Shown: positions 2,690-56,124 of the stretch, in pieces
How positions within the stretch are numbered: the stretch's first letter is position 1
How the letters are laid out: every line of letters starts with the position of its first letter
NCBI RefSeq assembly: GCF_963921235.1
Contig: NC_086107.1
Location: 104,472,001 to 104,532,000 of the forward strand
DNA from: Mobula hypostoma
Lineage: Eukaryota
Length of the DNA: 60,000 nucleotides
Reading direction: 5' to 3'
Position numbers and translations under genes: made by a program
The notes under the pieces: generated by a model
Database searches by the model: none
The model's input: only the letters and a program-made list of their open reading frames with translations
What the model was told of the DNA's origin: nothing

Positions 2690-5600
2690 CACGTGGGGTT
2701 GGTGATGGAGGAGGTTAGTGATGGAGGTGAGGTTGATGATGGAGGTGAGGTTAGTGATGGAGGTGAGGTTGGTGATGGGGGTTGGTGATGGAGGGGGTTG
2801 GTGATGGAGGGGATTGGTAATGGAGATGAGGTTGGTGATGGAGGGGGTTGGTGATGGAGGGGGTTGGTGATGGAGGGGATTGGTAATGGAGATGAGGTTG
2901 GTGATGGAGGGGGTTGGTGATGGAGGGGGTTGGTGATGGAGGGGATTGGTAATGGAGATGAGGTTGGTGATGGAGGGGGTTGGTGATGGAGGGGGTTGGT
3001 GATGGAGGTGGTTGGTGATGGAGGGGGTTGGTGATGGAGGTGGTTGGTGATGGAGGTGGTTGGTGATGGAGGGGGTTGGTGATGGAGGGGGTTTGGTGTG
3101 GAGGTGGGGTTGGTGATGGAGGTGAGGTTGGTGATGGAGGGGGTTGGTGATGGAGGTGGGGTTGGTGATGGAGGTGAGATTGGTGATGGAGGTGGAGTTG
3201 GTGATGGAGGTGAGGTTTGGTGATGGAGGGGGTTAGTGATGGAGGTGAGGTTGGTGATGGAGGTGAGGTTGGTGAAGGAGGGGGTTGGTGATGGTGAGGT
3301 TGGTGATGGTGAGGTTAGTGATGGAGGTGAGGTTTGGTGATGAAGGGGGTTGGTGATGGAGGTGAGATTGGTGATGGAGGTGGAGTTGGTGATGGAGGTG
3401 AGGTTTGGTGATGGAGGGGGTTAGTGATGGAGGTGAGATTGGTGATGGAGGTGGAGTTGGTGATGGAGGTGAGGTTTGGTGATGGAGGGGGTTAGTGATG
3501 GAGGTGAGGCTGGTGATGGAGGTGAGGGTGGTGATGGAGGTGAGGTTGGTGAAGGAGGGGGTTGGTGATGGAGGTGAGGTTGGTGATGGAGGGGGTTGGT
3601 GATGGAGGTGGTTGGTGATGGAGGGGGTTGGTGATGGAGGTGAGGTTTGGTGATGGAGGGGGTTAGTGATGGAGGTGAGATTGGTGATGGAGGTGGAGTT
3701 GGTGATGGAGGTAAGGTTTGGTGATGGAGGGGGTTAGTGATGGAGGTGAGGCTGGTGATGGAGGTGAGGGTGGTGATGGAGGTGAGGGTGGTGATGGAGG
3801 TGAGGTTGGTGATGAAGGGGGTTGGTGATGAAGGGGGTTGGTGATGGAGGTGAGATTGGTGATGGAGGGGGTTGGTGATGGAGGGGGGTTGGTGATGGAG
3901 ATGAGGTTGGTGATGGAGATGGGGTTGGTGTTGGAGGTGGGGTTGGTGTTGGAAGTGTGGTTGGTGATGGGGGGGTTTGGTGATGGAGGGGGTTGGTGAT
4001 GGAGGGGGGTTGGTGATGGAGATGAGGTTGGTGATGGAGGGGGGTTGGTGATGGAGGTGAGGTTGGTGATGAAGGGGGTTGGTGATGGAGGTGAGGTTGG
4101 TGATGGAGGGGGTTGGTGATGGAGGGGGTTGTTGATGGAGGGGGTTAGTGATGGAGGTGAGGTTGGTGATGGAGGTGAGGTTGGTGATGGAGGTGGTTGG
4201 TGATGGAGGTGGTTGGTGATGGAGGTGGTTGGTGATGGAGGGGGTTGGTGATGGAGGGGGTTGGTGATGGAGGGGGTTGTTGATGGAGGTGGTTGGTGAT
4301 GGAGGGGGTTGGTGATGGAGGTGGTTGGTGATGGAGGGGGTTGGTGATGGAGGGGGTTGTTGATGGAGGTGGTTGGTGATGGAGGGGGTTGGTGATGGAG
4401 GTGGTTGGTGATGGAGGGGGTTGGTGATGGAGGGGGTTGGTGATGGAGATGAGGTTGGTGATGGAGATGAGGTTGATGATGGAGGTGAGGTTGGTGATGG
4501 AGGGGGTTAGTGATGGAGGTGAGGTTGGTGATGGAGGTGGTTGGTGATGGAGGGGGTTGTTGATGGAGGGGGTTAGTGATGGAGGTGAGGTTGGTGATGG
4601 AGGTGAGGTTGGTGATGGAGGGGGTTGTTGATGGAGGGGGTTAGTGATGGAGGTGAGGTTGGTGATGGTGAGGTTGGTGATGAAGGGGGTTGGTGATGGA
4701 GGGGGGTTGGTGATGGAGGGGGGTTGGTGATGGTGAGGTTGGTGATGGAGATGAGGTTGGTGATGGTGAGGTTGGTGATGAAGGGGGTTGGTGATGGAGA
4801 TGAGGTTGGTGATGGAGGGGGTTGGTGATGGAGGGGGGTTGGTGATGGAGGTGGTTGGTGATGGAGGGGGTTGGTGATGGAGGTGGTTGGTGATGGAGGG
4901 GGTTGTTGATGGAGGTGGTTGGTGTGGAGATGAGGTTGGTGATGGAGATGAGGTTGGTGATGGAGGGGGTTGTTGATGGAGGTGGTTGGTGATGGAGGTG
5001 GTTGGTGTGGAGATGAGGTTGGTGATGGAGGTGGTTGGTGATGGAGGGGGTTGTTGATGGAGGTGGTTGGTGATGGAGGTGGTTGGTGATGGAGGGGGTT
5101 GGTGATGGAGGTGGTTGGTGATGGAGGGGGTTGTTGATGGAGGTGGTTGGTGTGGAGATGAGGTTGGTGATGGAGATGAGGTTGGTGATGGAGGGGGTTG
5201 TTGATGGAGGTGGTTGGTGATGGAGGTGGTTGGTGTGGAGATGAGGTTGGTGATGGAGGTGGTTGGTGATGAAGGGGGTTGGTGATGGAGGTGGTTGGTG
5301 ATGGAGGAGGTTGGTGATGTAGGGGGTTAGTGATGGAGGTGAGGTTGATGATGGAGATGAGGTTGGTGTAGAGATGAGGTTGGTGTGGAGATGAGGTTGG
5401 TGATGAAGGGGGTTGGTGATGGAGGTGAGGTTGGTGATGGAGGTGGGGTTGGTGATGGAGGAGGTTGGTGTGGAGATGAGGTTGGTGATGGAGAGGGTTT
5501 GGTGTGGAGGTAACGTTGGTGATGGAGGGGGTTTGGTGATGGAGGTGAGGTTGGTGTTGGAGGTGGGGTTGGTGTTGGAAGTGTGGTTGGTGATGGAGGG

Positions 5601-5865
5601 GGTTTAGTGATGGAGGGGGTTGGTGATGGAGGGGGGTTGTTGATGGAGGTAAGGTTGGTAATGGAGGGGGGTTGGTGATGGAGATAAGGTTGGTGATGGG
5701 GGGGTTTGGTGTGGAGGTGAGGTTGGTGATGGAGGGGGGTTGGTGATGGAGATGAGGTTGGTGATGGAGGGGGTTTGGTGTGGAGGTGAGGTTGGTGATG
5801 GAGAGGATTGGTGATGGACAGGGGTTAGTGATGGAGCGGGGTTGGTGATTGAGGGGAGTTGTTGA
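2690..5865. repeat. ~3.2 kb G-rich minisatellite, 16-19 bp unit (GGTTGGTGATGGAGG(TGA/GG/T))
   Basis: Directly visible tandem array of roughly 180 variant units, almost without C on the + strand. Confidence 0.97.
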
Positions 5866-7597
5866 AGGAAGTGAAGCTCCATGGGTTTGTGGGGGGTGGG
5901 TGTCGTGGTCCCATTGGGTGTTGGGCAGGAAGAGCTGGCCAGGTGGGTGAGGATGGCACTGGTGATGAAGAGGGGGTGGGGGAGGTGACTGTGAGTGGGC
6001 TTGGCAGAGAGATGGGGGGAAGGGTCCACTGGTGGTGTGGTTGGGGAAGAAGTAGTGACTTCTGGGGGTCAAACAGGGGGGATAGTGGGTAGACTCCATG
6101 ATGGGGAAAGGATTTGGGATCAATGCTGTGGACTTACTGAGATGGCAAGATTCAGTGCTGGGCCCATAACGTGGGGGGAATAATGAATAGCACAGAATAG
6201 TGACACCGAATGCAAGACATCTCTCATCATCCACGGCCAGGAATGAGATTATTCTCCGTTCACTTGTGTTATTTATTTATAGATCCAGCGAGCGAGTTAT
6301 TTTAACCTCTCAATTCCTGATGCATTGGATGTTTCTGGAGACAGGTGGCTTTTCATCACTGGGTTCCCACCCGCCCCGGCTGCAGGTGGGGCTCAAGGGT
6401 TGGGGAGTCACCCCACTGAGCAGAAACACGAACAGCTCGAGCCGAGGGTGGGGAGGGAGAAGTCCCAGTAGGGTACCTACTAGTAGGAGTTGTGCGATCA
6501 GTCAGACCAAGTCCCAAGGGCTGTCTATTGGTGGGTCCTCAGCTGGGACCAGGGTGGATGCGTGTTAGTGATGCCTGTGGTCAGTGGTTGGGTCTTTTGG
6601 TTGTTTGGTCCCTCCTTGCTCTCTGTGGCAGAGCGGAGGTCATCCTCACGTAGCGCAGCTCTCTCTCGAACATCTCCTGCGGGCGCGTCCCCCGAATGCA
6701 TTGTCTCCACGGTTTTCCAGTTGTCGTGTTGAATTTCTTCAGGGTACCTCGTGAGAGCGAAGTGGGCACTTGCTCCAAGGCCAAGTGACCTGTGCTGACA
6801 CAGTCCGTTGAATTGTACAAACTTTTCACCCAAAACCCATCCTCCCAGTGGATGGCCTTCTTCCCAACTAAAGATAGGACGGCTCTGGAATGGGGGTGGG
6901 GAGAATGAGCTGATGATTATTGGGGCAGGGGGAGACACTGGCATTCACAATAGTTGGTGATGAGGTAGCCTACCCAAGCAACAGTAAAGGGGCGAATCCC
7001 CCGATCCTCACCATGGAGGGTACTGTTGAATAATGTGAGTCTCTTCTGAATGGTTCTACCTTCGGCCAGTTCCCTACCCTCAGTTATAAGCTCACACCCC
7101 TCGAGGGATAGGCAGGACTGGGAGTAATCATGAGAACCCCACCCCATAAACCCAAGGCTTGTGTTTCTATTTGGGAAAGAGGGGGTTTTGAAGTAACTTG
7201 CAGAGAACGCCCACATTTTGTAGGTACCCCTGAGCTGAGGAATAAGGAGGTGGGGAGGGAGAACGGTGAGAAGAATGAGGTTAAGTTTTGAACTAGACCT
7301 GGTATAATACCTGGCCGTGCATGAAGTGTTAGCAAGAAATAATGAGGGCAGAGGTCGATGAAGTGAACTGGGGCCAAGGACTCAGGGGTAGAGTGCAAGT
7401 GAGATAAGGGATTGGGGACCAAATGAAAGTGAGACAATTGCCTTTTTGAATGAGACATTCAAAATTCAATACTGGAAATTCTCACCAGGTCAGACAGCAT
7501 CTGTAGAGAGGGAAACCGTTTTTTTCAGGATCATGACATTCGATCAGGATTAGAAATAATACCTTTCAAATTCCGGGAGAAAGACTAAGTGAGTATC

Positions 7598-12004: not shown

Positions 12005-12690
12005 TCCACAGGAATTGGTACTGGGTCCATTGACAATTCCTCATGGATATTAATGATACAGATGATAATGTGGCAAACTGGATCAGCAAATTTGCGGATG
12101 ACACCAAGACTGGGGCAGAGTCGATGACAAGGAAGGCTATCAAAGCTTGCAGAAGGATCTGGACCAGCTGGAAAAATAGGACAAAAATGAGAAATGGAAT
12201 TTAATGCAGAAAGCTGTGAAGTGCTCCACTTTGGGAGGGTAAACCAGGGTAAGACTTGCACGGGGAATGGTAGGACAAAGGGATCTGGGAATACAGGTCC
12301 ATAATTCCTTGAAAGTGGCATGGCAAGTAGAGAGGGTCATAAGAAGAGCTTTTGGCTCATTGGCCTTCATAAATCAGGGCTCTGAGAACAGGAGTTGGGA
12401 GGTTGCAGTTGTATAGGCTATAGGAAATTCTTCCACATCTCTGTCCTAAAGTGACGTATTCTGAGGCTGTACCCTCTAAAGAAACCACCCTCTCCACGGC
12501 CACTGGTGAGATGTTGGTGAGGCCTACTGAGTGCAGTTCTTGTCACCTACCCACAGGAAAGATGTCCATGAACTTGAAAGAGGATGGAGAAAACTTATGA
12601 GGATGTTTCCACGACCGGAGGACCTGAAATAAAGGTTGAGTAGGTTCAGACTTTATTTCCTGGAGCTCAGGAGGACGAGGGGATATCTTC
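12005..12690 (+). mobile_element. Decayed CR1 LINE RT fragment
   Basis: NWISKFADDTK-like and LDQLEK segments homologous to the CR1 at 29.5-31 kb. Confidence 0.75.
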
Positions 12691-17481: not shown

Positions 17482-17674
<193 letters not shown>

Positions 17675-17946
17675 CCTGATGAAGTGATGAAGGGTCTCGG
17701 CCTTAAACGTCTACTGTTTACTCTTTTCCATAGATGCTGCCTGACCTGCTGAGTTCCTCCAGTGTTGTGTGTGTGTTGCCCTTCAGCGTTCATGCTTGCT
17801 GCTTATTCTAGCATCTGCCCCCTTCCTTTCTGGTCCTGATAAAGGATTGTGGCCCAAAATGTTAACTCTTTATTCCTCTCCATGGATGCTGCCTGACCTG
17901 CTGAGTTTCTCCAGCATTTTGTGTGTGGTACAGTGTATCTACAGGA

Positions 17947-24360: not shown

Positions 24361-24832
24361 AAGTTAACTAACTGCTCCCGGGACTGAGAGAGTCCCGGTC
24401 GGAGATGAACTGATTGGGTCGGCGCTAAATTGATGACAGTGCAAAACAGTAGAGTCCAGCAGAGGCCATTCGGCCCACAATGACTGTGCTGAGCATGATG
24501 TCAGATTAAATTAAATCCTCCTGCCTGCACGTGATACATATCCCTTAGTTCGGGTGTCTGACCGATTTTTAAACATCACACACACAATGCCGGAGGAACT
24601 CAGCAGGCCAGGCAGTATCTGTGGGAAAGAGTCGACAGTTGACGTTTTCGGGCCGAGACCCTTCATCGGGACCAGCGAGATGGTCAAAGTCGTGGCTGCC
24701 TGGTGACGATAGCCAAGAACCTGGGGGCTCCCGTCGGCCCGGTTCCTTCTCCCGGTGAGGAGCCTCGGCCCGGAACGCGACTGTTCGCTCGTTTCTGTAG
24801 ATGCTGCCTGGCCTGATGATTTCCTCTGGCAT

Positions 24833-25236
24833 TGTGTGTGTGTGTGTGAGTGTGTGTCTGCGTGTGAGTCTGTGTGTGTGTCAGTGTGTGTGTGTCAGTG
24901 TGTGTGTGTGTGTGTGTGTCAGCGTGTGTCTCAGTGTGAGTGTGCGTGTCAGTGTGTGAGAGTGTGTGAATGAGAGGGTGAGTGTGTGTGTGAGAGAGTG
25001 TGTGTGTGTCAGTGTGTGAGTGTGTGTCAGCGTGTGAGTCTGTGTGTGTGTCAGTTTGTGTGTGTGCCTGTGTGTGTGTCAGTGTGAGTGTGTGTGTGAG
25101 AGAGAGTGTGTATGTGTGTGTGAGTGTGTGTGAGTGTGAGAGTGTGAGTGTGTGTGTGTGAGAAAGAGAGAGAGTGTGTGTGTGTGTGTGTGTGTGTGAG
25201 TGAGTGTGTGTGTGTGTGTGTGAGTGAGAGAGAGAG

Positions 25237-25284
<48 letters not shown>
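24833..25284. repeat. Compound (TG)n/(AG)n microsatellite inside a Penelope-like repeat
   Basis: Direct observation; the flanks are the two halves of the PLE repeat. Confidence 0.95.
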
Positions 25285-25288
<4 letters not shown>

Positions 25289-28189
25289 TGCTTTGGCTTT
25301 CCAGCATCTGCAGATTTCTCGTGCCTGAGATCCTTAAACATCTCCTTTGTGTCTACCCCCAGCAACCCGTTCCATGCACCCGAGACTTTCTGTGTGACGG
25401 AGCTTGACCCCACGTGTCTCCTTTACCTTTCCCCTACCACGTGAAATGGGACCTCTGGTATTTAACTTTTCTACCTGGCTTTAAAAAAAAGATTCTCTCT
25501 CCCCTGTCTATTGCCTCGGCTCTCTTTAGCTTTACCAGCTGTCCCGTTAGGTTGATGCTCCTGAAAAAACAACCCTAGTTTCTCCAAACTCTCTTTACAG
25601 CTCGTGCCCTCTGACCCAGTCAGCGAAGTCGGACGGGACTTCAGGGTGCGGAGCACAGGGGAAGGTGCAAGCCAGTGTCAGTGATATCCTGAAAGTGAGA
25701 TTGGAGATTGGAGATTGCAGACGACCTGAGAGTTCCCGGTGGCCTGACATGCAGATCTCAGTGTGTTAACAGCTGCGAATTGTGTAGTCAGGGCGGGGCC
25801 GTCTAGAGCCAACCCCCTCCCACCCAACCCCACCGCCATTTTCCCGTCCGCTGCCCCCTGGCAGAAACTCCGCCTGTCCCGACGCGGTGACGCGGCCTCC
25901 ACAGCTCTCAGGGTTGGAGACCCCAGAGATCCACGCAGCTTACTCCGGCTGTGGTCTCAGGGCTGACCGCGGTTGTAGCAGGACTTCCCGCCCGTTACAC
26001 AAGTTCAAGTTTATTGTTGGCTGACTGTAGGTGCATACAGACAAATGAAACAGCTTTCTTCCGGACCACAGTGCACCCAGGCAACAAATATCACACACAG
26101 CCCATAAACCACAATGTTATATTATAAATAAATTAACAAAATATAATTCGAGTAAGATAATAAAATATAACACAAGGGGGCATAGTTTTGAGGTGCTTGT
26201 AAGTAGGTACAGGGGATGTCAGAGGTTAGTTTTTTCACACAGAGAGCGGTGGGTGTGTGGAATACGCTGCCAGTGGTGGTGATAGAGGCGGAGACACTAG
26301 GGTCTTTTCAGAGACTCTTAGATACATTGAGTTTAGTAAAATAGAGGGTTATGCAGTAGGGAAATTCTAGGCAGTTTCTAGAGTAGGTTACATGGTCAGT
26401 ACAACATTGTGGGCCGAAGGGCCTGTAATGTGCTGTAGATTTCTGAAACAAAAATAATTCTGTACACTATAGAACATAGGACAGCCGACCGTTTAGATCA
26501 AACTAACTCTTCCCTCCCTCTAGCCCTCCATGTGTCCGTCTGCTGTTGTTGTTCCTTTTCGCGCCCTGTGGCGCATCAGGTGGCACTTTTGCCATCTTCT
26601 TGGTGTTTGCCTGTTTCTATGAGGTCAAGTTGCTAGCCCGATGCCCAGCCCAGCACGGATGGAAAGTGTGCAAGGAGCCGGCCGGATTCGAACCCGGGAT
26701 CATTTGCCTCGAAGTCCGGTGCTGATGCCGCGACATCAGCGGCCGGCGAATGTGCCTGTGCCTATTTCAGAGTCTCTTAAATGCCCTTAATGTATCTGCC
26801 TCCACCACCATGCCTGGTAATGCATTCCAGGTATTCACTACTCTGTGTATATAAAAAAAACCTCTAACATAATTTCCCCCCCCCCCCCGCCTTACTTTTC
26901 CCTCTTTATTAACCATTTCTGCCCTGGTAATCTACTCTATCAGTACCTCTGTACCCCTTCTCAATTTATAGTCAAGTCACCTCTCTCATCCTCCTTGGCT
27001 TTGAAGAGAAAAGCCCTGATTTGCTTATAAAGGCCTGACAAAGACCAACTTTCCATTTGCCTTCCTGATGACTCACTGTGCCGATCCGCGGACTCGGTTT
27101 CAAGTACACGGACATTTTGCAATTGTTGTCCATCCTTTGCGTTTGTAGTCTTCCCGCCGGCGTGGAGAACCTCGCATTTATATGGGACGCAGATCAGTAC
27201 GGCACAGGAACAGTTTCGGGAGCAGTTTGGGGCCCTTTATCGGGGAAGAGATGTGCTGGCGTTGGGAAGGGCCCAGAAAAGGTTCACAAGAATGATCCGG
27301 AGATGGACAGGTTTGACGTACCGGGAGTGTTTAATGGCTTAGAGCAGGGATGAGGAGGAATTTCTTTAGCCAGAGCGTAGTGAAGAAAAGGAAGAGAGGC
27401 GACTTTGGAAGTGTCAGCAAACTGGAGCGCGCAGGAGGAAACCCTCACCGTCACAGGGAGAAGGTGCGAGTTCCAGATTCGCAGCCGGGTCTCTGGGGCC
27501 GTGGGGCAGCGGCTCTCCCCGCCGCGCCAGCGCTCTGTCTGTATCTGGGACGGAGGCGCATGGCATCGCAGGAGACTAACGGGCAGTTTCTGAGCCTTGT
27601 TTGTAAACAGCGCACAACGTGTGCCAGCGGGCCCTGTAAACAGTGAGGGCTAATTGGTTACCCGGTTCACCGAACTGTGATGGCTCCAGGTCAATCATTA
27701 AGGTAGCGGTCTGGGAGAGCGGAGAGTGGGGAACGAGGTCACTATTAACCCGGAGGAACTGCTGACTGATCAGCACCCGCAGTAACCATTAACACTGGCA
27801 CTTGGCCACGTCTCGACAGGGCAGGGTGCACGATGTTCCAGCGAGTTCACCTGTCCCGGGTAATTCCTAACGCACAGCCCCTCCCCGAAAACCGAGGGAC
27901 AGGGTTCCGTGGTTGGATGTTGGGGGAGGGTGAACAAAAGATGATGAGGGAGTGGGATTGAGGGGCGAGGGGAGTGGGTTTGAGCGATGTGGAGTGGGGG
28001 AGATGAGAGGGTGGGAAGGATAAGGAGTGGGGACGAGGGATGAGGAAGCAGGGTGAGGGGTCGCAGGGAAGCACAAGAGTGATCCTCGGAGTGAAAGGGT
28101 TAACGTGCAAGGACCATCCAATGGGTCTGAGGCTGTGCTCGCCGCAGTTTAGAAGAGCCGGTACCTCGCTGAAACTCGGTGAATACTGA

Positions 28190-29035
28190 AACTCGAGAAA
28201 ATCTGCGGATGCTGGAAATCCAAAGGAACACACACAGAACGCTGGGGGAACTCAGCAGGTCGGGCAGCGTCTGTGGAAAAGAGTCAACAATCGGCGTTTC
28301 GGGCCGAGACCCTTCAGCAGGACTGGGAAAAAAAGATGAGAATTTCGAGCAAGAAGTTGGGGGGGGGGGAAGAAGTGGTAGGTGATAGGTGAAACCAGCA
28401 GAGGTGAAGTAAAGGGCTGGGAAGTTGATAGGTGAGAGAGATAAAGGGCTGGAGAAGGAGAAGGTAGAAAACCATGGAAGAAAGGGAAGGGTAGGTAAGA
28501 TGAGAAAGGGGAATGGGAATGGGGGAATGGTGTACCGGAGGACAGTTACCAAAAGTTTGAGAAATTGATGTTCATGCCATCAGATTGGAGGCTACCCAAA
28601 CGGAATACAAGGTGTTGCTCCTCCAACTTGAGTGTGGCCTCATCGCGACAATAGTGGAGGCCGTGGACTGACATGACAGAATGGGAATGGGAAGTAGAAT
28701 TGAGCGGTCACCAGGAGATGCCACTTTTCCTGACGGACAGAGTGGATGCTTGGCGAAGTGGTCTCACCGATGTACAGGAGGCCACACCGGGAGCACCGGA
28801 CACGATATACCACCCCAGCAGACTCACAGGTGAAGTGTCGACTCTGCTGGAAGGGCTGTTTGGGGCCCTGGATGGCAGTGAAGGGGGAGGTGTGGCACTT
28901 GTTCTGCTTGCAAGGATAAGTACCAGGAGGGAGATTAGTGGGAAGAGACAAATGGACAAGGGAGTCACATAGGGAGCGATCCCTGTGGAGAGGAATGGAG
29001 GGCAAGGAAGCAGGGTGGTATAACAGCAGGTGTAG
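28190..29035 (-). mobile_element. Penelope-like element 3' remnant: GIY-YIG endonuclease fragment plus terminal repeat with degenerate hammerhead motif
   Basis: ORF 28640-29041 reads PGTYPCKQNKC...FTCESAGVVYRVRCSRCGLLYIGET (PLE GIY-YIG with Cys motif). Downstream on the same strand is CTGCTGAAGGGTCTCGGCCCGAAACGCC (28293-28320). Confidence 0.8.
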
Positions 29036-32305: not shown

Positions 32306-33574
32306 TCTTGGGAGACACATAGACCGCAGATTCTGGAATCTGGACCAACAAACAGCTGGAGGAACACACACAAAATGGCACAGAAACTCAGCAGGCCAGG
32401 CAGCATCTGAGGAAAAGAGTAAACAGTTGGTGTTTCGGGCCGAGACCTTTCGTCAGGACAGCTGGAGGAACTCGGCAGGCCAGGCGGCGTCCGTGGATGA
32501 AAACCGACAATCGACGTTTTAGGTCAAGCTCTTCCTCTGGATGGTTGGAGGGCTGACTCTCCAGTTCCCTGCCTGCTGACCAACTGAGTTCCTCCGGCTT
32601 TGCGTTTTTAGCTCCAGTCGGCTCGGGCGCAATTTCCGCGCGGCGGCTGAGGGTCACGGACAGAGCGTGGTCACGGCTGGTTTGCCGGTGCTCACTGCCC
32701 AATATGAGCAGCAGAACCGGAAGCAGAAGACGCCTGGGATACTCAGCAAGGCAGGCAGCGTCTGTGGAGAGGAAGCAATATTGTGGGCATCGGAAAGGTC
32801 ATTAAATCTGCTTCTCTCTGCTGACACCCTGCCTGAGTTTCCCAGCATTTTCTGTTTCCATTTCAGATTTCCCTGCATCTGCAGTTTATTTACGTAGTGA
32901 TACAGCACAGAATAAACCCTCCTGGCCCTTCGAGCCACACCACCCCAGCAATCCCACAAACCCAATTATCCCTAACCTAATCGAGGGACAATTTACAATG
33001 TGCGATTAACCTCCCCGGTACATCTTTGGACTGTGGGAGGAAACCAGAACTCCGGGGGAAAATCCACGCATTCCACAGGGAGGAGACTCCTTACGGACGG
33101 CACCAGATTTGAACTCCGAACTCTGGAATGCCCCGAGCTACAATAGCGTCAAGCTAACCGCTACGTGAGCTGGTTCGACCGGTCACTGACCAGTGTAAGT
33201 GGTTTGTTCCCGCTGACTGGCCACCAAATGATATAACTAAATGGTTTGCAGCTGATTAACGGATGGATAAATCGGACAGAACTGTCTCTACACTTGCTGT
33301 ACAGCGTGAGACCTTGTTGCCCACAGGGTCTGATGGTTGAGTGACAACTTCCGAATGGTTGAAGTATTGAGGGCTTTATGTTGGTGATCTTCACAGAGTG
33401 TTGATTCCCGTCCCTGTCCTCCAGTGACACCAAGTTTTGACCTTACCTGTGTTGCACCCTACGCTGACTTCTGGCTGGCAACTCCTGTGCTGGGCTCTCA
33501 AAGTTCAATCGCTTGAGGGCTTTGCTCAAGCGGCCACTTCACACGTATCCACGGGCTACGAGGGACAATAGGAG

Positions 33575-35760: not shown

Positions 35761-36475
35761 CAGTACCAGGTAGCGGATACAGCCCAGTCCATCACGGGTA
35801 ACACCCTCCCCGCCATCCAGCACATCTACCCGGAGCGCTGCCTCAGGACAGCAGTGTCCAACATCAGGGACTCCCATCACCCATCAGGAAGGAGGTACAG
35901 GAGCCTCAGGACCCACACCACCAGGTTCAGGAGCAGTTATCACCCCTCAACTCTCAGGCTCGAGCCAGAGAGGATAACTTCACTCACTCCACCACTGACC
36001 TGTTCCCACAACCTACGGACTCACTTCTCCATCTCATGTTCTTCATGTTTGTTTGTTTGCTTATTTACTCTTTTGTGTTTTACACATTGGTTGTTTGTCC
36101 GTCCTGTTGTGTCTCACAACCAAGGGAAGATCTGAAGATGCTGGAAATCAGAGCAACACACACAAAATGCTGGGGGACTCTGCAATTTACCCAAAACTCT
36201 CTCCATAGACGCTGCCTGGCCTGCTGAGTTCCTCCAGCATTGTGTGTGCGTGTTGTTGGGTGAGGCCCTTCACTGATTCCATTATGGGTCTTGAATTTAC
36301 TGAGTATGCCCGCAAGAAAACGAACCTCTGTTGGCATAGGTGTACTTTGTTAATAATATTTACTTTGAGCGTTGAAGAATACGGAGCGGTACTGCTCTGT
36401 GTTCGGTGTGATGCTGGCCAGCCCGTGGGCATCACGGAGACAGTTCTCAAGCGCTTGTGTTGTGTGTTGGAACAG

Positions 36476-39168: not shown

Positions 39169-39282
39169 GGAACCAGTTCGAGCTACTCCCAGCTTCCTCC
39201 TCGACCTCCGCCCTCACCCCGAGCCTGCCTCTCGCCCCTGGTGCCATCAGTCAGGAGACTGTCCATCGCTCACTCCGTCAAT
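39169..39282 (+). CDS. PLEKHA4: PLEKHA4-like exon (GTSSSYSQLPPRPPPSPRACLSPLVPSVRRLSIAHSVN)
   Basis: CTACAG| acceptor, AAT|GTAAGC donor, 114 nt. SYxQLPPRPP matches PLEKHA4. Confidence 0.88.
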
Positions 39283-39759: not shown

Positions 39760-41425
39760 TCAGAATCAGGTTTATTATCACCAGCATGTGGCGTGAAATT
39801 TGTTAACTTAGCAGCAGTTCAATCTAGCAGAGAGAGAGAGAGAAAAAAATAGTTAAAATAAAACATAATAATAAACAAACAAGTAAATCAATTATGTATA
39901 TTGAATAGATTTTTAATGTGCAAAAACAGAAATACTGTATATTAAAAAAGTGAGGTAGTGTCCAAAGGAACAATGTCCATTTAGGAATCGGATGGCAGAG
40001 GGGAAGGAGCTGTTCCTGAATCGCTGAGTGTGTGCCTTCAGGCTTCTGTACCTCCTACCTGATGGTAACAGTGAGAAAAGGGCATGTCCTGGGTGCTGGA
40101 GATCCTTAATAATGGACGCTGCCTTTTTGAGACACCGCTCCCTGGAGATGTCCTGGGTACTTTGTAGGCCAGTGCCCAAGATGGAGCTGACTAGATTTAT
40201 AACCTTCTACAGCTTCTTTCGGTCCTGTGCAGTAGCCCCTCCATACCAGACAGTGATGCAGCCTGTCAGAATGCTCTCCACAGTACATCTATAGAAGTTT
40301 TTGAGTGTATTTGTTGACATGCCTCTCGGGTTCAAGAGCCTGATGATAAAGGGGTAATAACTCTTCCTGAAGCTGGTGGTATGGGTCCTGAGGCTCTGTT
40401 TCTTCTTCCTGATGGCAGCATTGAGAAGAGACGTGGCCTAGACAGTTGGGGGGGGAGGGGTCCTTGATGATGGATGCTGTTTTACTGCGACAGCACTCCA
40501 AGTGGGTGTGCTCAATGTTGGGGACAGCTTTACCCGTGATGGACAGGGCTGCATCCACTACTTTTTGTAGGCTTTAAAGGGTATTGGTGTTTCCATATTG
40601 GGCTGTGATGTAATCAGACTTACACTCTCCACTGCGCATCTATAGAAGTTAGCCAACATTTTAGATGACATATTGGGCTCGTGGCCAAGTGGTTAAGGCG
40701 TTTGTCTAGTGATCTGAAGGTTGCTAGTTCGAGCCTCAGCTGTGGCAGCGTGTTTGTGCCCTTGAGCAAGGCACTTAACCACACATTGCTCTAGTGTCTG
40801 TGCGAGGAGTGGCACCCCACACAGACTTCCAATCTGCGCCTTGTAAGGCATGAAAATGCCCGAGGCAGGCCCCTCATGGTCTGAGTCGACATTCCCTCCC
40901 CTTTAGATGACATGCAAAATCTTTGCAAACTTCTAAGAAACTGGTTTTGCTGCCGTGCTTTCTTCATAATTGGACTTGCATGCCAGACCCACGACAGGTC
41001 CTCAGAAACGTTAACACCAGGAAATTTAAAGTTGCTGACCCTCTCTACCTCTGATCCCCTGATGAGGACTGCCTCATGGACCTCTGGTTTCCCCCGTCTC
41101 AAGTCAATAATCAGCTCCTTGGTCCTGCTGAGTGAGAGGCTGTTGTGGTGGCATCTCTCAGCAGATTTTCAGTCTCTCTCCTATAAACTGATTCGTCACC
41201 ACCTTTGATACGGCCCACAACACTGGTGTCGTCAGCAAACCTAAATATGGCATTGGAACTGTGCTTAGTTTTAAGTATAAAGCGAGTAGAGCAGGGGCTA
41301 AGCACACAGCCTTGTGGTGTACCTGTGCTGGTGGAGATTGTGGGTTACCAGGCTGAACTGACTGGGATCTGCAAGTGAGGATGTTGAGGATCCAATTGCT
41401 CAAGGAGGCCTTGTAGCCTGTTGAA
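39760..41425 (-). mobile_element. Cluster of Rex1/Babar-like LINE fragments
   Basis: KKAASIIKDLQHPGHALFSLLPSGRRYRSL...SAIRFLN (39913-40179) and FRFADDTSVVGRI / ERVSNFKFPGV (40900-41300). Confidence 0.75.
40675..40902 (+). mobile_element. tRNA-derived SINE with CORE-like box, inserted in a LINE fragment
   Basis: GTGGCCAAGTGGTTAAGG A box, GTTCGAGCC B box, CCTTGAGCAAGGCACTTAACC. The flanking TTTAGATGACAT is duplicated (~40660-40671 and ~40902-40913). Confidence 0.8.
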
Positions 41426-41596
41426 TAGTTTTCTCTAGGATGAGAAAAAGAAGAGACAGCTGGGATGGGTCGGGGCTGGGAGGGGTACGTGGTTACCATG
41501 GGGAGGTGGGGACCAAACCTTGGGCAGAGTTTTGGGGAGGGGCCACTGGGATGGTTAGAACAGTAGAAAATCAACAGAAAAATATCGAGCAACATT

Positions 41597-41782
41597 ACAT
41601 CAAAGTTGCTGGTGAACGCAGCAGGCCAGGCAACATCTATAGGAAGGGTCTGTCCTGACGAAGGGTCTCGGCCTGAAACGTCGACTGTACCTCTTCTTAT
41701 AGATGTTGCCTGGCCTGCTGCGTTCACCAGCAACTTTGATGTGTGTTGCTTGAATTTCCAGCATCTGCAGAATTCCTGTTGT
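41597..41782 (+). mobile_element. Fold-back Penelope-like mini-element with intact hammerhead core, 12-14 bp TSD
   Basis: Perfect 45 bp inverted arms at 41597-41641 and 41698-41742. Direct repeat TCGAGCAACATTAC at 41585-41598 and 41783-41796. Confidence 0.8.
41650..41687 (+). ncRNA. Minimal type I hammerhead ribozyme motif (PLE-type)
   Basis: GTC-CTGACGA-A-GGG TCTCGG CCT-GAAAC-GTC^GAC. Both conserved boxes are intact, with stem II GGG/CCU, palindromic ACGU stem III, a GUC cleavage triplet and stem I GUC/GAC. Confidence 0.65.
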
Positions 41783-42957
41783 TCGAGCAACATTACTTTA
41801 GGTTTTACACGGCATGGTAGCACGTTGGCCAGTTTAACAGCTTACAGTGCCGGCAGTTGGAATTCTATTCCTGTTGCTGCCTGTCGAAGGTTTGTGCGTT
41901 CCCCTCGTGATGCGTATGTTCCCTCCACGCGCCCCAGTTTCCTGCCACGTTCCAAAGATGGGTCAGTAGCGGTTAGTAAGCTGTGAGCATGTTATGTTGG
42001 CGTCGGAAACACAGTGACCCCTGCACGTCCTCGGGCTGTGTTGGCCAGTGACGCAAACAATGCTCGTCTCGATGGTCAAATGGTTTACCAAGTTCAATTT
42101 AACATTGGAGAATGTGTACAGTATACAACCTGGAATTCTTACTCTTCACAGAAATCCACGAAACATGAAACCCCAAAGAATGAATCAGATCCCCGAATCC
42201 TCCTCCCCCTCCCACGTACAAGCAGTTGCAGAACCATCGGCCTTCTCCTACACCCCCCCCCCGTCACTTGCACAAGTGGGTGCACTGCCCCCCCCCATCA
42301 GTAAGCAATAGCAAAAGCCCCCAAAGAGAGTTTGATCCAGAGCTCATCAAAAACGACGGTCCATAACCCAGCACTTTGGTATCTCAGACAGGCTCTCTCT
42401 CACCAGCGATAACGACAGCCGGAGACTAGCAGCTCGCTGCATCCAATGTCACAATCTTCCGCGTCACTTCTCCAAACTCCTGGACCCAGGGACCGGCAGG
42501 GTCTCGCCCTCCATTAAGGGAGGGAGAGAGGGGTCGCCGGAGTACAGCAGCCTCCTGCCGACAGCAACGCACACCGCCCGCGGCCCCAGTGTTTCAGTGT
42601 CCCACAACACTTCAGTCGGCAAAATCGGCGAGGAACTGCTCCCTGAAGATGCACGTCTTCCAGGCCGCACCTGGAGATATCGAAGTGCTACCCCTCGTGG
42701 TCAGTGCGCAAACCTGCGGCTCGCGGAGAACCGTAGTTTGAGCTGTAGCTGTAGATCACGGACTGCGGCAGAACCCCAGCCACTGTGTTTTGATGTGCAC
42801 GTGACAAATAAAGCCAGCCTTTTAGAGGGGCGATGAGACTAAGGGTGTCATGGAAGCTCAGAGTACGGTGTGCAGACCAGTGAGAGCTGTAAAGTAATTT
42901 GCTCGGAGCCGGATCAGGGTGAGAGAGTGAGACACTGACGGCAGCTCTTTCCTACAG

Positions 42958-49781: not shown

Positions 49782-49786
<5 letters not shown>
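49236..49786 (+). mobile_element. Non-autonomous Tc1/mariner DNA transposon
   Basis: TIRs CAGTGGCCATTTTATTAGGTACA (49240-49262) and TGTACCTAATAAAGTGGCCACTG (49760-49782). Internal transposase N-terminus remnant KCDLSDFDCEMIVGARWGGLSISQTANPLGFSHTPASRVYRE. Confidence 0.85.
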
Positions 49787-49843
<57 letters not shown>

Positions 49844-49846
49844 TTG

Positions 49847-50082
49847 TATTTGTACCTCTGTGACTCTGTGTGTGTGAGTGTGTGTGTGTGTGTGTGAGTG
49901 TGCGTGTCTGTGAGTGACTGTGTGTGTGTATGTGTGTGAGTGAGTGTGTGCGTGTGTATGTGAGTGTGTGTGTACACACGCACACACTCACACACATACA
50001 CACACACAGTCACTCACAGACACGCACACTCACACACACACACACACACACTCACACACACAGAGTCACAGAGGTACAAATA
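49847..50082. repeat. Long inverted repeat built from (TG)n/(CA)n-rich arms
   Basis: TATTTGTACCTCTGTGACTCTGTG... is mirrored by ...CACAGAGTCACAGAGGTACAAATA. Confidence 0.85.
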
Positions 50083-50129
50083 TCTGGTAATCAGGCTGCC
50101 TTAGGTCTAGGAGAAAGTCCGAGGAAGAT

Positions 50130-54237: not shown

Positions 54238-55378
54238 GTAACCCTCTCCGCACTTCCTCTGACCCTGCCCACCCTCTCCTGTGCCCGTTTCCCCTTTCGG
54301 AGGATACTCCGGAATTTGCTGCCGCTGCCCAAGGACCCTCCCTCCCCGTAAACCTTAGGACTCCCAGCACGTCCCCCGGAGACTCTCAGCAACTTTTACA
54401 GATGCACCATTGAAAGCATCCTCCCCAGGTGCACAACGGCGTAGTGTTGCCATTGCTTAGCGTCCCGAGGACGGCAAGAGATTGCAGAGTTACGAACGCA
54501 ACCCAGTTCACGTCACAAACCAGCCTCTCCTCCACTGACTCCGTCTACACTTCCTGCTGCCTTGGGAAAGCAGTCAACATAGTCACCATTCCCACTGTGA
54601 TCCTTCGCCTCTGTCCCCTCCTCCCATCGGACAGAAAATATTCAATCCTTCCCCGTACAAACCACCAGGGCTCAAGGACAGCGTCTTCCCGCTGACGGGA
54701 CCGCTCGTACTCGAAAAAATGACATCGGGAATTCTTGATCTATCTTGCCGTGGCTCTCACACTTCATCTCCACGCCTGCTCTGCACTTTCTCTGTAAATA
54801 CTCCAGCGTATTCCTCATTCTGTCTCCGTTTCACTATCAAAGTGTAATTATGTACGGCATATAGATGCCACACAAAGCACTTTGCCCTTCGCTGTACCTC
54901 AATACCTGTGGCAGCAATGAACCAGTATCACCCTCTCAAGCAGCACCTTGCTGTGTAAACGGATTTCTCTTTACCTGATGCTGACTGTCTTCTACCTGTG
55001 GACTCTCTTGCCACTGTGAACACATTCCAACAAACTCCCGGAAGCTTTCAGCAGCCCTCCAACCTGAGAGTTGTTCTGATAGCCCCCAACCCGATGGCAT
55101 AAACATCGGTTTCTCCAACTTCCGGTAATTTCTCTTCGCCCTCCCCTTCCCTGTTTTTCCATTCCCCATTCTGGGTGTCCTCTCACCCTGTCTCCTCACT
55201 TGCCCATCCTCTCCTTCCCTCTCTCCCATGGTCCACTCTCCTCTCCTATCAGATTCCTTCTTCTCCGGCCCTTTACAGTACGTCTTCCACCTATCGCCTC
55301 CCAGCTTTTTACTTTGTCCGCCCTCCCCCCACCCACCCAGCTTCCCCTCAGCCGGTCTCACCTACGTATCACCCGCCA

Positions 55379-55580
55379 ACACACATCAAAGTTGCTGGTG
55401 AACGCAGCAGGCCAGGCAGCATCTCTAGGGAGAGGTACAGTCGACGTTTCGGGCCGAGACCCTTCGTCAGGACAGAAACGTTGACTGTACCTCTCCCTAG
55501 AGATGCTGCCTGGCCTGCTGCGTTCACCAGCAACTTTGATGTGTGTTGCTTGAATTTCCAGCATCTGCAGAATTCCTCGT
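55379..55580. mobile_element. Fold-back Penelope-like mini-element with intact hammerhead core (minus strand), 13 bp TSD
   Basis: 73 bp inverted arms at 55378-55450 and 55475-55547 (one mismatch). Direct repeat GTATCACCCGCCA at 55366-55378 and 55581-55593. Confidence 0.8.
55438..55475 (-). ncRNA. Minimal type I hammerhead ribozyme motif (PLE-type)
   Basis: Minus strand reads GTC-CTGACGA-A-GGG TCTCGG CCC-GAAAC-GTC^GAC, with all core positions intact. Confidence 0.65.
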
Positions 55581-56124
55581 GTATCACCCGCCAGCTTGTT
55601 CTCCTCCCCCTCCCTCCATCGCTACCGCCGCCCCCCCTTTCCTTTCCAGTCGTGATGAGGGACCTCAGCCTGAATATTCTCCTCCACAGATGCTGACTGA
55701 CGTGCTGAGACCTCCAGCAGTTTGTGTGTGTTCTCTCCTTTTATCCTTATTCCCAGCCACCCCACCGGAATAATATTTACTTTAAAAAGCAGATGGCGAA
55801 TTACCAGATTCCACCCCCCCGGTATCGCCATGAGGTTTGAAGAGATGTGAGTTGTCCTCCGTAACGATTTACCTTTACGCCGCCAGGGGGATCTTGCGTC
55901 GACAGCCGGGGGCACAGGCCGGAGAGGAAAGATGAGTGCAGAGGAGCAGAAGGAGAGGATGAAGAGGCACCTCCAAGCACGGGGTCAGGACCGGGCCAAG
56001 ACGGGCCGAATGGCCCAGAGGGGCGTGGTCGTGTCGCCAGTTGTGGTGGGTGAAGCCTCGCTTTCCGCCGTCTCTGTAGGGTGACCGTGGACACTCTCCA
56101 CTGGCACTGTCTGTGCCCCATTAA

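Follow-up and report, generated by a model that had tools for sequence, protein, structure and literature searches.

The insertion at positions 41585-41796 of the 60,000-nt stretch analysed here (the window) places a hammerhead ribozyme core in the loop of a near-perfect hairpin within an intron, which raises the question of how such a structure came to be there and whether its RNA cuts itself. The unit sits within exact direct repeats of 14 nt (41585-41598 and 41783-41796, spacing 198 by direct-repeat comparison) that enclose 184 bp. Both the flanking repeat and inverted arms perfect over 45 bp (41597-41641/41698-41742) had been noticed in a preliminary description, and both were recovered exactly, the repeat over 14 nt on each side and the arms at the same coordinates; with one G-T pair the arms reach 50 nt (41597-41646/41693-41742).

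As argued below, the unit is a 5'-truncated pseudo-LTR (pLTR) of a Penelope-like element (PLE) together with an inverted truncated copy and a tail of 30-40 bp at one end. From left to right, it begins with the left target-site duplication (TSD, 41585-41598), whose last 2 nt are common to the inverted arm and whose first 11 nt can pair with the element at 41743-41753, and continues with the inverted, 5'-truncated and tailless pLTR copy (41597-41648, minus strand). The plus-strand part comprises the junction and the 5' strand of hammerhead stem I (41649-41654, with GTC at 41652-41654), the core box C3-A9 (41655-41661) followed by an extra A at 41662, stem II (41663-41674), the GAAA box with a loopless palindromic stem III and C17 (41675-41682, nominal cut after 41682), the 3' strand of stem I with the direct pLTR 3' segment (41683-41742, the right arm being 41693-41742) and a PLE tail (41743-41783, about 36-41 nt), which the inverted arm lacks. 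The 3' ends of family members accumulate behind 41777 and 41783, and the first T of the right TSD (41783-41796) may be common to the element end. The unit is asymmetric, its tailed arm running about 40 nt past the hairpin, and what remains of the element amounts to about 135 nt in direct and about 50 nt in inverted orientation. A repeat scan of the locus detected no tandem array. The unit is also crossed by a stop-free frame of 139 aa, which we do not regard as a gene because its element part has a single homologue, a predicted STARD3NL isoform of Mobula hypostoma in which another family copy is an annotated exon. To the left of the insert lies a decayed LINE reverse-transcriptase fragment (41000-41420, minus strand; Pfam RVT_1, E 8e-4) that is high-copy in contigs, and FADD-motif fragments resembling it occur near 12091 (plus) and 30433 (minus). 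To the right, 41810-42060 is moderately repeated sequence, which may resemble a tRNA-derived SINE of cartilaginous fish.

That this is a true insertion with a TSD follows from an empty site bearing a single copy of the repeat. Four of the 23 listed sequencing runs were aligned to the window, and runs X1, X5 and X9 are referred to as organisms A, B and C. One 591-nt contig from the one run X9 (record 30) matches 41393-41598, continues with 13 letters and then matches 41810-42157; the 13 letters have the length of 41797-41809 and are equated with it on that basis. This contig is the empty site, with one repeat copy, and it bears out the retrotransposed insertion with TSD that had been proposed. 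Organism A spans the left junction with zero differences, and organism B spans both junctions (4 differences in 257 nt, 8 in 402 nt), while the contig of organism C differs from the window at 35 substituted positions and by 24 gap letters over about 550 nt. The insertion is thus common to organism B (about 2% flank difference) and absent from organism C (about 6%). As it is present in A and B and missing in C, it predates the A-B split, and the youth claimed for it holds in this relative sense. The same contigs bear on the idea that a simple truncated copy gained its inverted arm after insertion, by a replication template switch, or that the arm is an assembly artefact. Template switching can indeed make or homogenise near-perfect arms. 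Against this explanation, the TSD encloses both arms, contigs of two organisms span the left junction into the arm, and a tail is found on one arm only in all five family pairs that could be scored, so that we regard it as barely credible. The list of runs named no RNA run containing this stretch, and run X17, guessed to be RNA, left the unique flanks beside the insert uncovered; neither result speaks to expression.

The insertion lies in sense orientation in a GT-AG intron (39283 to about 42957, between exons that end at 39282 and start at about 42958) of a gene of the PLEKHA4/5/6/7 family, whose matched coding exons span 15030-58363 on the plus strand. A translated window exon matches a Mobula birostris protein that NCBI names PLEKHA7-like, and this protein gave 18 plus-strand exon-like matches from 15030 to 58363, most of them with 92-100% identity and a few lower where the match enters introns. 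The sense-strand intron given in the preliminary description therefore stands, whereas the name PLEKHA4 is less secure: the PH domain of the M. birostris orthologue scores 159.2 bits for PLEKHA4, 158.7 for PLEKHA7 and 158.3 for PLEKHA5, and PLEKHA4 is a plausible assignment from the top score in this one stretch.

The link to a PLE comes from an older paralogue at 28196-29035 (minus strand), which combines a broken GIY-YIG C-terminus (28549-29035), a pyrimidine-rich pLTR, a decayed hammerhead and a tail. Its repeat copy (28196-28323) is 76% identical to the focal unit over 130 nt and lies about 230 nt behind the broken reading frame. An exhaustive homologue search with the longer fragment of this frame yielded 515 proteins at E up to 0.001, the two best being predicted proteins of Hypanus sabinus. 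RVT_1 and GIY-YIG were both found in six of eight proteins scanned (the two best and six long ones of 150 listed), with most Pfam scores of the long homologues falling below the curated cut-off. Furthermore, two of the proteins, 816 and 827 aa long, match the window fragments in their C-terminal parts (tblastn E 3e-20 and 2e-20). Taken alone, the GIY-YIG fragment of the window matched Pfam GIY-YIG at only E 0.24, and a homologue search with the last, short GIY-YIG fragment found nothing; an Atlas search pointed to GIY-YIG and HTH_animal clusters with family shares of 10-55%, which is a lead only. The focal copy has no ORF, and its connection to one runs through the paralogue at 76% identity. 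Judging from sequence, the repeat family is most readily read as the 3' end of a PLE pLTR. In PMC8557442 and PMC3846280, PLE insertions are outlined as strongly 5'-truncated, with an inverted and truncated copy adjoining the 5' end, a tail of 30-40 bp on one side, a pLTR hammerhead and a short TSD. The focal unit shows the terminal-repeat hammerhead, the inverted 5'-truncated copy, the one-sided tail and a TSD with an empty site, and in the paralogue the repeat stands behind an ORF fragment that matches the C-termini of proteins with RT and GIY-YIG; the window itself contains no RT of this family.

According to BLAST and profile searches, the window holds 26 segments of this family at 16 loci. 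Eight of the 16 loci are head-to-head (five clear, three weak or cut by the window end), and what had been presented as a distinct fold-back unit and intronic module is a routine truncated PLE end. Exactly one arm carries the tail in all five scorable head-to-head pairs, in one of them beyond a TG expansion; no TSD was found for five older pairs. In three runs the contig depth summed over the element exceeded that of the unique flank by a factor of about 4-9 x 10^5, a ratio to be read as an order of magnitude and not as a copy number, and ray genomes may hold hundreds of thousands of copies. No locus was found when metagenome, viral and prokaryote contigs were scanned for the exact pattern. 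Among titles and abstract starts we found no literature on this ray repeat family, which may already be catalogued in Repbase or Dfam. Several arrays adjoin or interrupt family copies: a 450-bp TG array appears to have expanded within one copy, between body and tail (24750-25320), another copy starts directly after a CA array (17483-17670), and at 17684-17936 and 32357-32541 there are two head-to-tail partial tandems of the repeat with all cores damaged. The window also contains a 3.2-kb G-rich array (2696-5873; 189 copies of a 16-17-nt unit, GC skew up to 0.97), possibly a G-quadruplex former, and a TG array running straight into a CA array, the two making a 100-nt inverted repeat (49785-50083).

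A second young head-to-head copy (55366-55593, minus strand) is 95% identical to the focal one over 100 nt, has an intact core (55444-55470) and its own 13-bp TSD (55366-55378/55581-55593), and sits inside a pLTR of greater age from the same superfamily (window 55050-55740), which retains part of a GIY-YIG C-terminus near 55072-55125 and, at 55648, a hammerhead in decay. A pair of young fold-back copies that lie 14 kb from each other, share 95% identity and both have TCTGTCC at the junction is what could be expected of a non-autonomous palindromic family (MITE-like or retrozyme-like) dedicated to spreading as a fold-back unit. However, the two copies differ in junction, in arm length and in the side of the tail, which at 55366 is on the inverted arm and thus opposite to the focal one; their arms match within each copy better than across copies, and contigs show several distinct fold-back joints. 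The fixed terminal inverted repeats and fixed interior of a MITE-like element are not seen, as ends and junctions differ among copies, and the locus lacks tandem units each with a complete hammerhead, the tandem array being the defining trait of non-LTR retrozymes in the account consulted (10.64898/2026.07.22.740005). Taken together, this makes a dedicated palindromic family very improbable. In most family copies GTCC is preceded by a pyrimidine tract and CA, unlike the TCTGTCC of the two young copies, for which a subfamily variant or a spliced 5' exon may account, as may, in the focal copy, decay of an inverted arm that reaches the cut site. In three longer copies (19722, 28324 and 55648) a pyrimidine tract and CAG stand directly ahead of the hammerhead in a splice-acceptor-like arrangement, and the intron of Drosophila virilis Penelope is reported to end at helix I (PMC4209133). 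Such a tract could explain the exonised STARD3NL copy, and one idea is that copies starting with CTG or TCCTGA might derive from spliced RNA.

We consider it likely, with a probability of about 0.85 for the explanation as a whole, that the focal unit is a dead-on-arrival, extremely 5'-truncated insertion of a high-copy ray PLE. The GIY-YIG endonuclease of the element would cut both target strands 13-14 nt apart, and both 3'-OH ends would prime reverse transcription on pLTR RNA, one at the tail end and the other about 40 nt further in. The two short cDNAs would stop in or near the hammerhead and be joined head to head, and repair would create the TSD. The hammerhead would be a passenger of the pLTR, kept because the copy is young, and the hairpin RNA, if transcribed with the host intron, would most likely not cut itself. 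This explanation builds on direct observations (the anatomy, the empty site, the abundance of the family, the linkage of the paralogue to a PLE ORF and the one-tail pattern) and on computed folding, to which it adds double priming, inactivity in vivo and neutrality, all of which we infer.

The origin of the inverted arm allows another reading. With the same PLE origin, the arm could have arisen by self-priming, in which the cDNA folded back near the hammerhead, copied itself, was joined to the target through microhomology and had its tails trimmed during resolution, as has been proposed for head-to-head PLE structures in PMC3846280. For the focal copy taken alone, this fold-back fits equally well: the inverted arm lies wholly inside the direct arm, and the 11-nt complementarity between the TSD and 41743-41753 is explained, as is the private variant common to both arms. 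This paired variant, 41633A/41706T, is found in only about 3-5% of family depth, and its presence in both arms means that they come from one source sequence or were homogenised later. As for the 11-nt pairing of the left TSD with the element just past the end of the arm, an equally good score is reached by 17 of 40,000 14-mers drawn at random from the window, with a score picked after the match was seen and a null that includes family copies. The pairing fits annealing-assisted priming as well as a fold-back followed by joining through microhomology; a long stretch of pairing is dispensable, since the 55366 copy has only about 2-nt overlaps. In that copy each arm has sequence missing from the other, and there, as probably in the pair at 36131, the arm extending further 5' has no tail and the shorter arm has one. 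One folded-back cDNA is insufficient to template both such arms without later trimming, and self-priming is in our view possible, if doubtful. The one-tail pattern in 5/5 pairs speaks for priming on both strands of the target rather than for a simple fold-back of the cDNA. Moreover, the anole PLE enzyme is reported to cut and extend both target strands in vitro, with two adjacent internal RT starts defining the tail (PMC11167929). It is from this enzyme behaviour, the one-tail pattern and the unique sequence of each 55366 arm that we infer priming from both strands. By extension, small head-to-head insertions might tentatively be viewed as fossils of PLE twin priming with one strand per internal start site, so that a single step would account for the inverted pLTRs, the tail on one side and the TSD.

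Turning to the hammerhead itself, the core boxes proposed for it are present as CTGACGA (41655-41661) and GAAACGTC (41675-41682). The core pattern was observed twice in the 60-kb window against 0.05 expected, a number that 0 of 100 shuffles reached, and the focal core is the only intact one on the plus strand, the other being antisense. The complete CUGANGA, GAAA and UH elements, the extra nucleotide between 9 and 10.1 (A41662) and the palindrome 15.2-16.2 within ACGU (41678-41681) also confirm its assignment to the Penelope-type minimal type I hammerheads. The description of the ribozyme as intact holds for these boxes and not for the remainder. Stem II, given as GGG/CCT, is present and folds as 4 bp (GGGU/GCCU) around a CUCG loop; its first pair is G41663-U41674, so the G10.1-C11.1 pair of minimal PLE hammerheads is lacking. 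The GTC/GAC stem I does form 3 bp, followed by a U-U mismatch and then C-G; helix I of minimal PLE hammerheads has 4-5 bp. Among 13 window copies, the 10.1-11.1 position is G-C in six, G-U in five and unpaired in two, and as it is a CpG in its G-C form, the G-U is likely the result of CpG decay. Stems I and II of the 13 decayed window copies were paired in 81% of cells compared with 20-49% in slid controls, with no excess over shuffles. A search of Rfam, named as a check in the preliminary description, returned no hammerhead family for the unit at the gathering threshold or at E up to 10, the matches at E up to 10 being generic miRNA hairpins and noise only.

The preliminary description envisaged a self-cleaving, dsRNA-forming intronic module with a cut after 41682. 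The second of these properties can be accepted conditionally: with near-perfect 50-nt arms and a predicted minimum free energy of -136.8 kcal/mol (z = -16), a long hairpin should form whenever the intron is transcribed. Cleavage is another matter. The loopless stem III (A15.1-C15.2-G16.2-U16.1) means that this stem forms only between two copies and that a dimer is obligatory. In the computed ensemble, GACG (41657-41660) pairs with CGUC (41679-41682) with a probability of 0.98-1.0, 4 kcal/mol below the open core, and a double hammerhead formed by strand swapping comes out 10.5 kcal/mol less favourable than a pair of hairpins (-217.5 vs -228.0 kcal/mol), these nearest-neighbour energies leaving out tertiary contacts. 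The same mispairing is predicted for the isolated core of the 55366 copy, and it may be a family trait that protein relieves. Because stem III has no loop, no second intact sense core lies in the window, 10.1-11.1 is G-U and the core is predicted to mispair with the cleavage site, self-cleavage of the pre-mRNA at 41682 seems unlikely from folding.

The idea that the intronic copy is an active ribozyme, or a co-opted one, cutting the pre-mRNA of the host after 41682 through a dimer in trans or with help from a PLE protein, nevertheless has some points to its credit: all core boxes are intact, the arms keep the stem I strands in register, the family is so abundant that partners in trans may exist, and the anole PLE hammerhead is reported to cleave in the presence of its protein (PMC11167929). 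Against it stand the missing stem III loop and cis partner, the G-U pair, the inhibitory pairing and the lower stability of the dimer. In addition, an intact core is missing from 24 of the 26 family segments of the window (some of them being truncated, not decayed), the copy is absent from organism C, and in the account of PMC4209133 a single minimal hammerhead is inactive and dimers cleave weakly; dimers of PLE hammerheads are also the subject of Lunse et al. (summarised in PMC6765202). We therefore hold such a ribozyme to be highly improbable, and cleavage that matters to the host very unlikely. Joints that jump back about 34 nt (41685 to 41652) were seen in X1, X5 and X9 contigs at 41652-41696, and they suggest loci elsewhere with directly tandem hammerhead cores that would be able to form a dimer. 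A trace of cleavage in vivo could also lie in the inverted arm, if this were a copy of the 3' cleavage product joined via stem I microhomology. An alignment of the arm can be carried as far as the hammerhead cut site (16 of 20 columns), and among the loose ends listed there is no pile-up of DNA copy 5' ends at 41683; on its own, this origin of the arm is quite unlikely.

The focal locus is of little consequence in itself, being one young copy of a very abundant repeat in a genome where such hairpins are common, and it calls for caution, as hammerhead-plus-hairpin matches in rays will mostly be PLE debris. The ray family is, on the other hand, a large natural data set on the origin of PLE inverted repeats and tails, called undefined in PMC8557442, and on whether PLE hammerheads ever cut in vivo; if twin priming is true, the ray copies provide material to test it.

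Among known systems, the endonuclease-containing PLEs, as outlined in the sources cited above, resemble the focal unit in the head-to-head 5'-truncated copy, the one-end tail, the TSD and the pLTR hammerhead, and their C-terminal GIY-YIG ORF is matched in the ray paralogue and not in the focal copy. Compared with these published PLEs the truncation is far deeper, and the TSDs of 13-14 bp are longer than the 8-10 bp given for Adineta PLEs. Poseidon_Ac of the green anole, as portrayed in PMC11167929, is anatomically like the ray family in having two adjacent 3' end classes, a hammerhead about 120 nt upstream of the element end and insertion into its own pLTR, as in the 55366 copy. The same source states that PAc needs an RNA region beyond the RT start for activity; the focal inserted copy has no counterpart of it and, by analogy, would therefore be unable to move again. 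The metazoan PLE minimal hammerheads described in PMC4209133 likewise have a type I core with an extra base between 9 and 10.1, a palindromic 15.2-16.2 and no loop 3, and are mostly solo genomic copies, as here, whereas the focal hammerhead departs from them in its 4-bp stem II, the change of G10.1-C11.1 to G-U, the U-U mismatch in stem I and the extension of that stem into a 50-bp hairpin. Finally, the non-LTR retrozymes, reported from one chondrichthyan in the account cited (10.64898/2026.07.22.740005), are also non-coding, related to PLEs and equipped with a type I hammerhead, but they form head-to-tail arrays with a hammerhead in each unit, whereas the focal locus has one core in a head-to-head unit.
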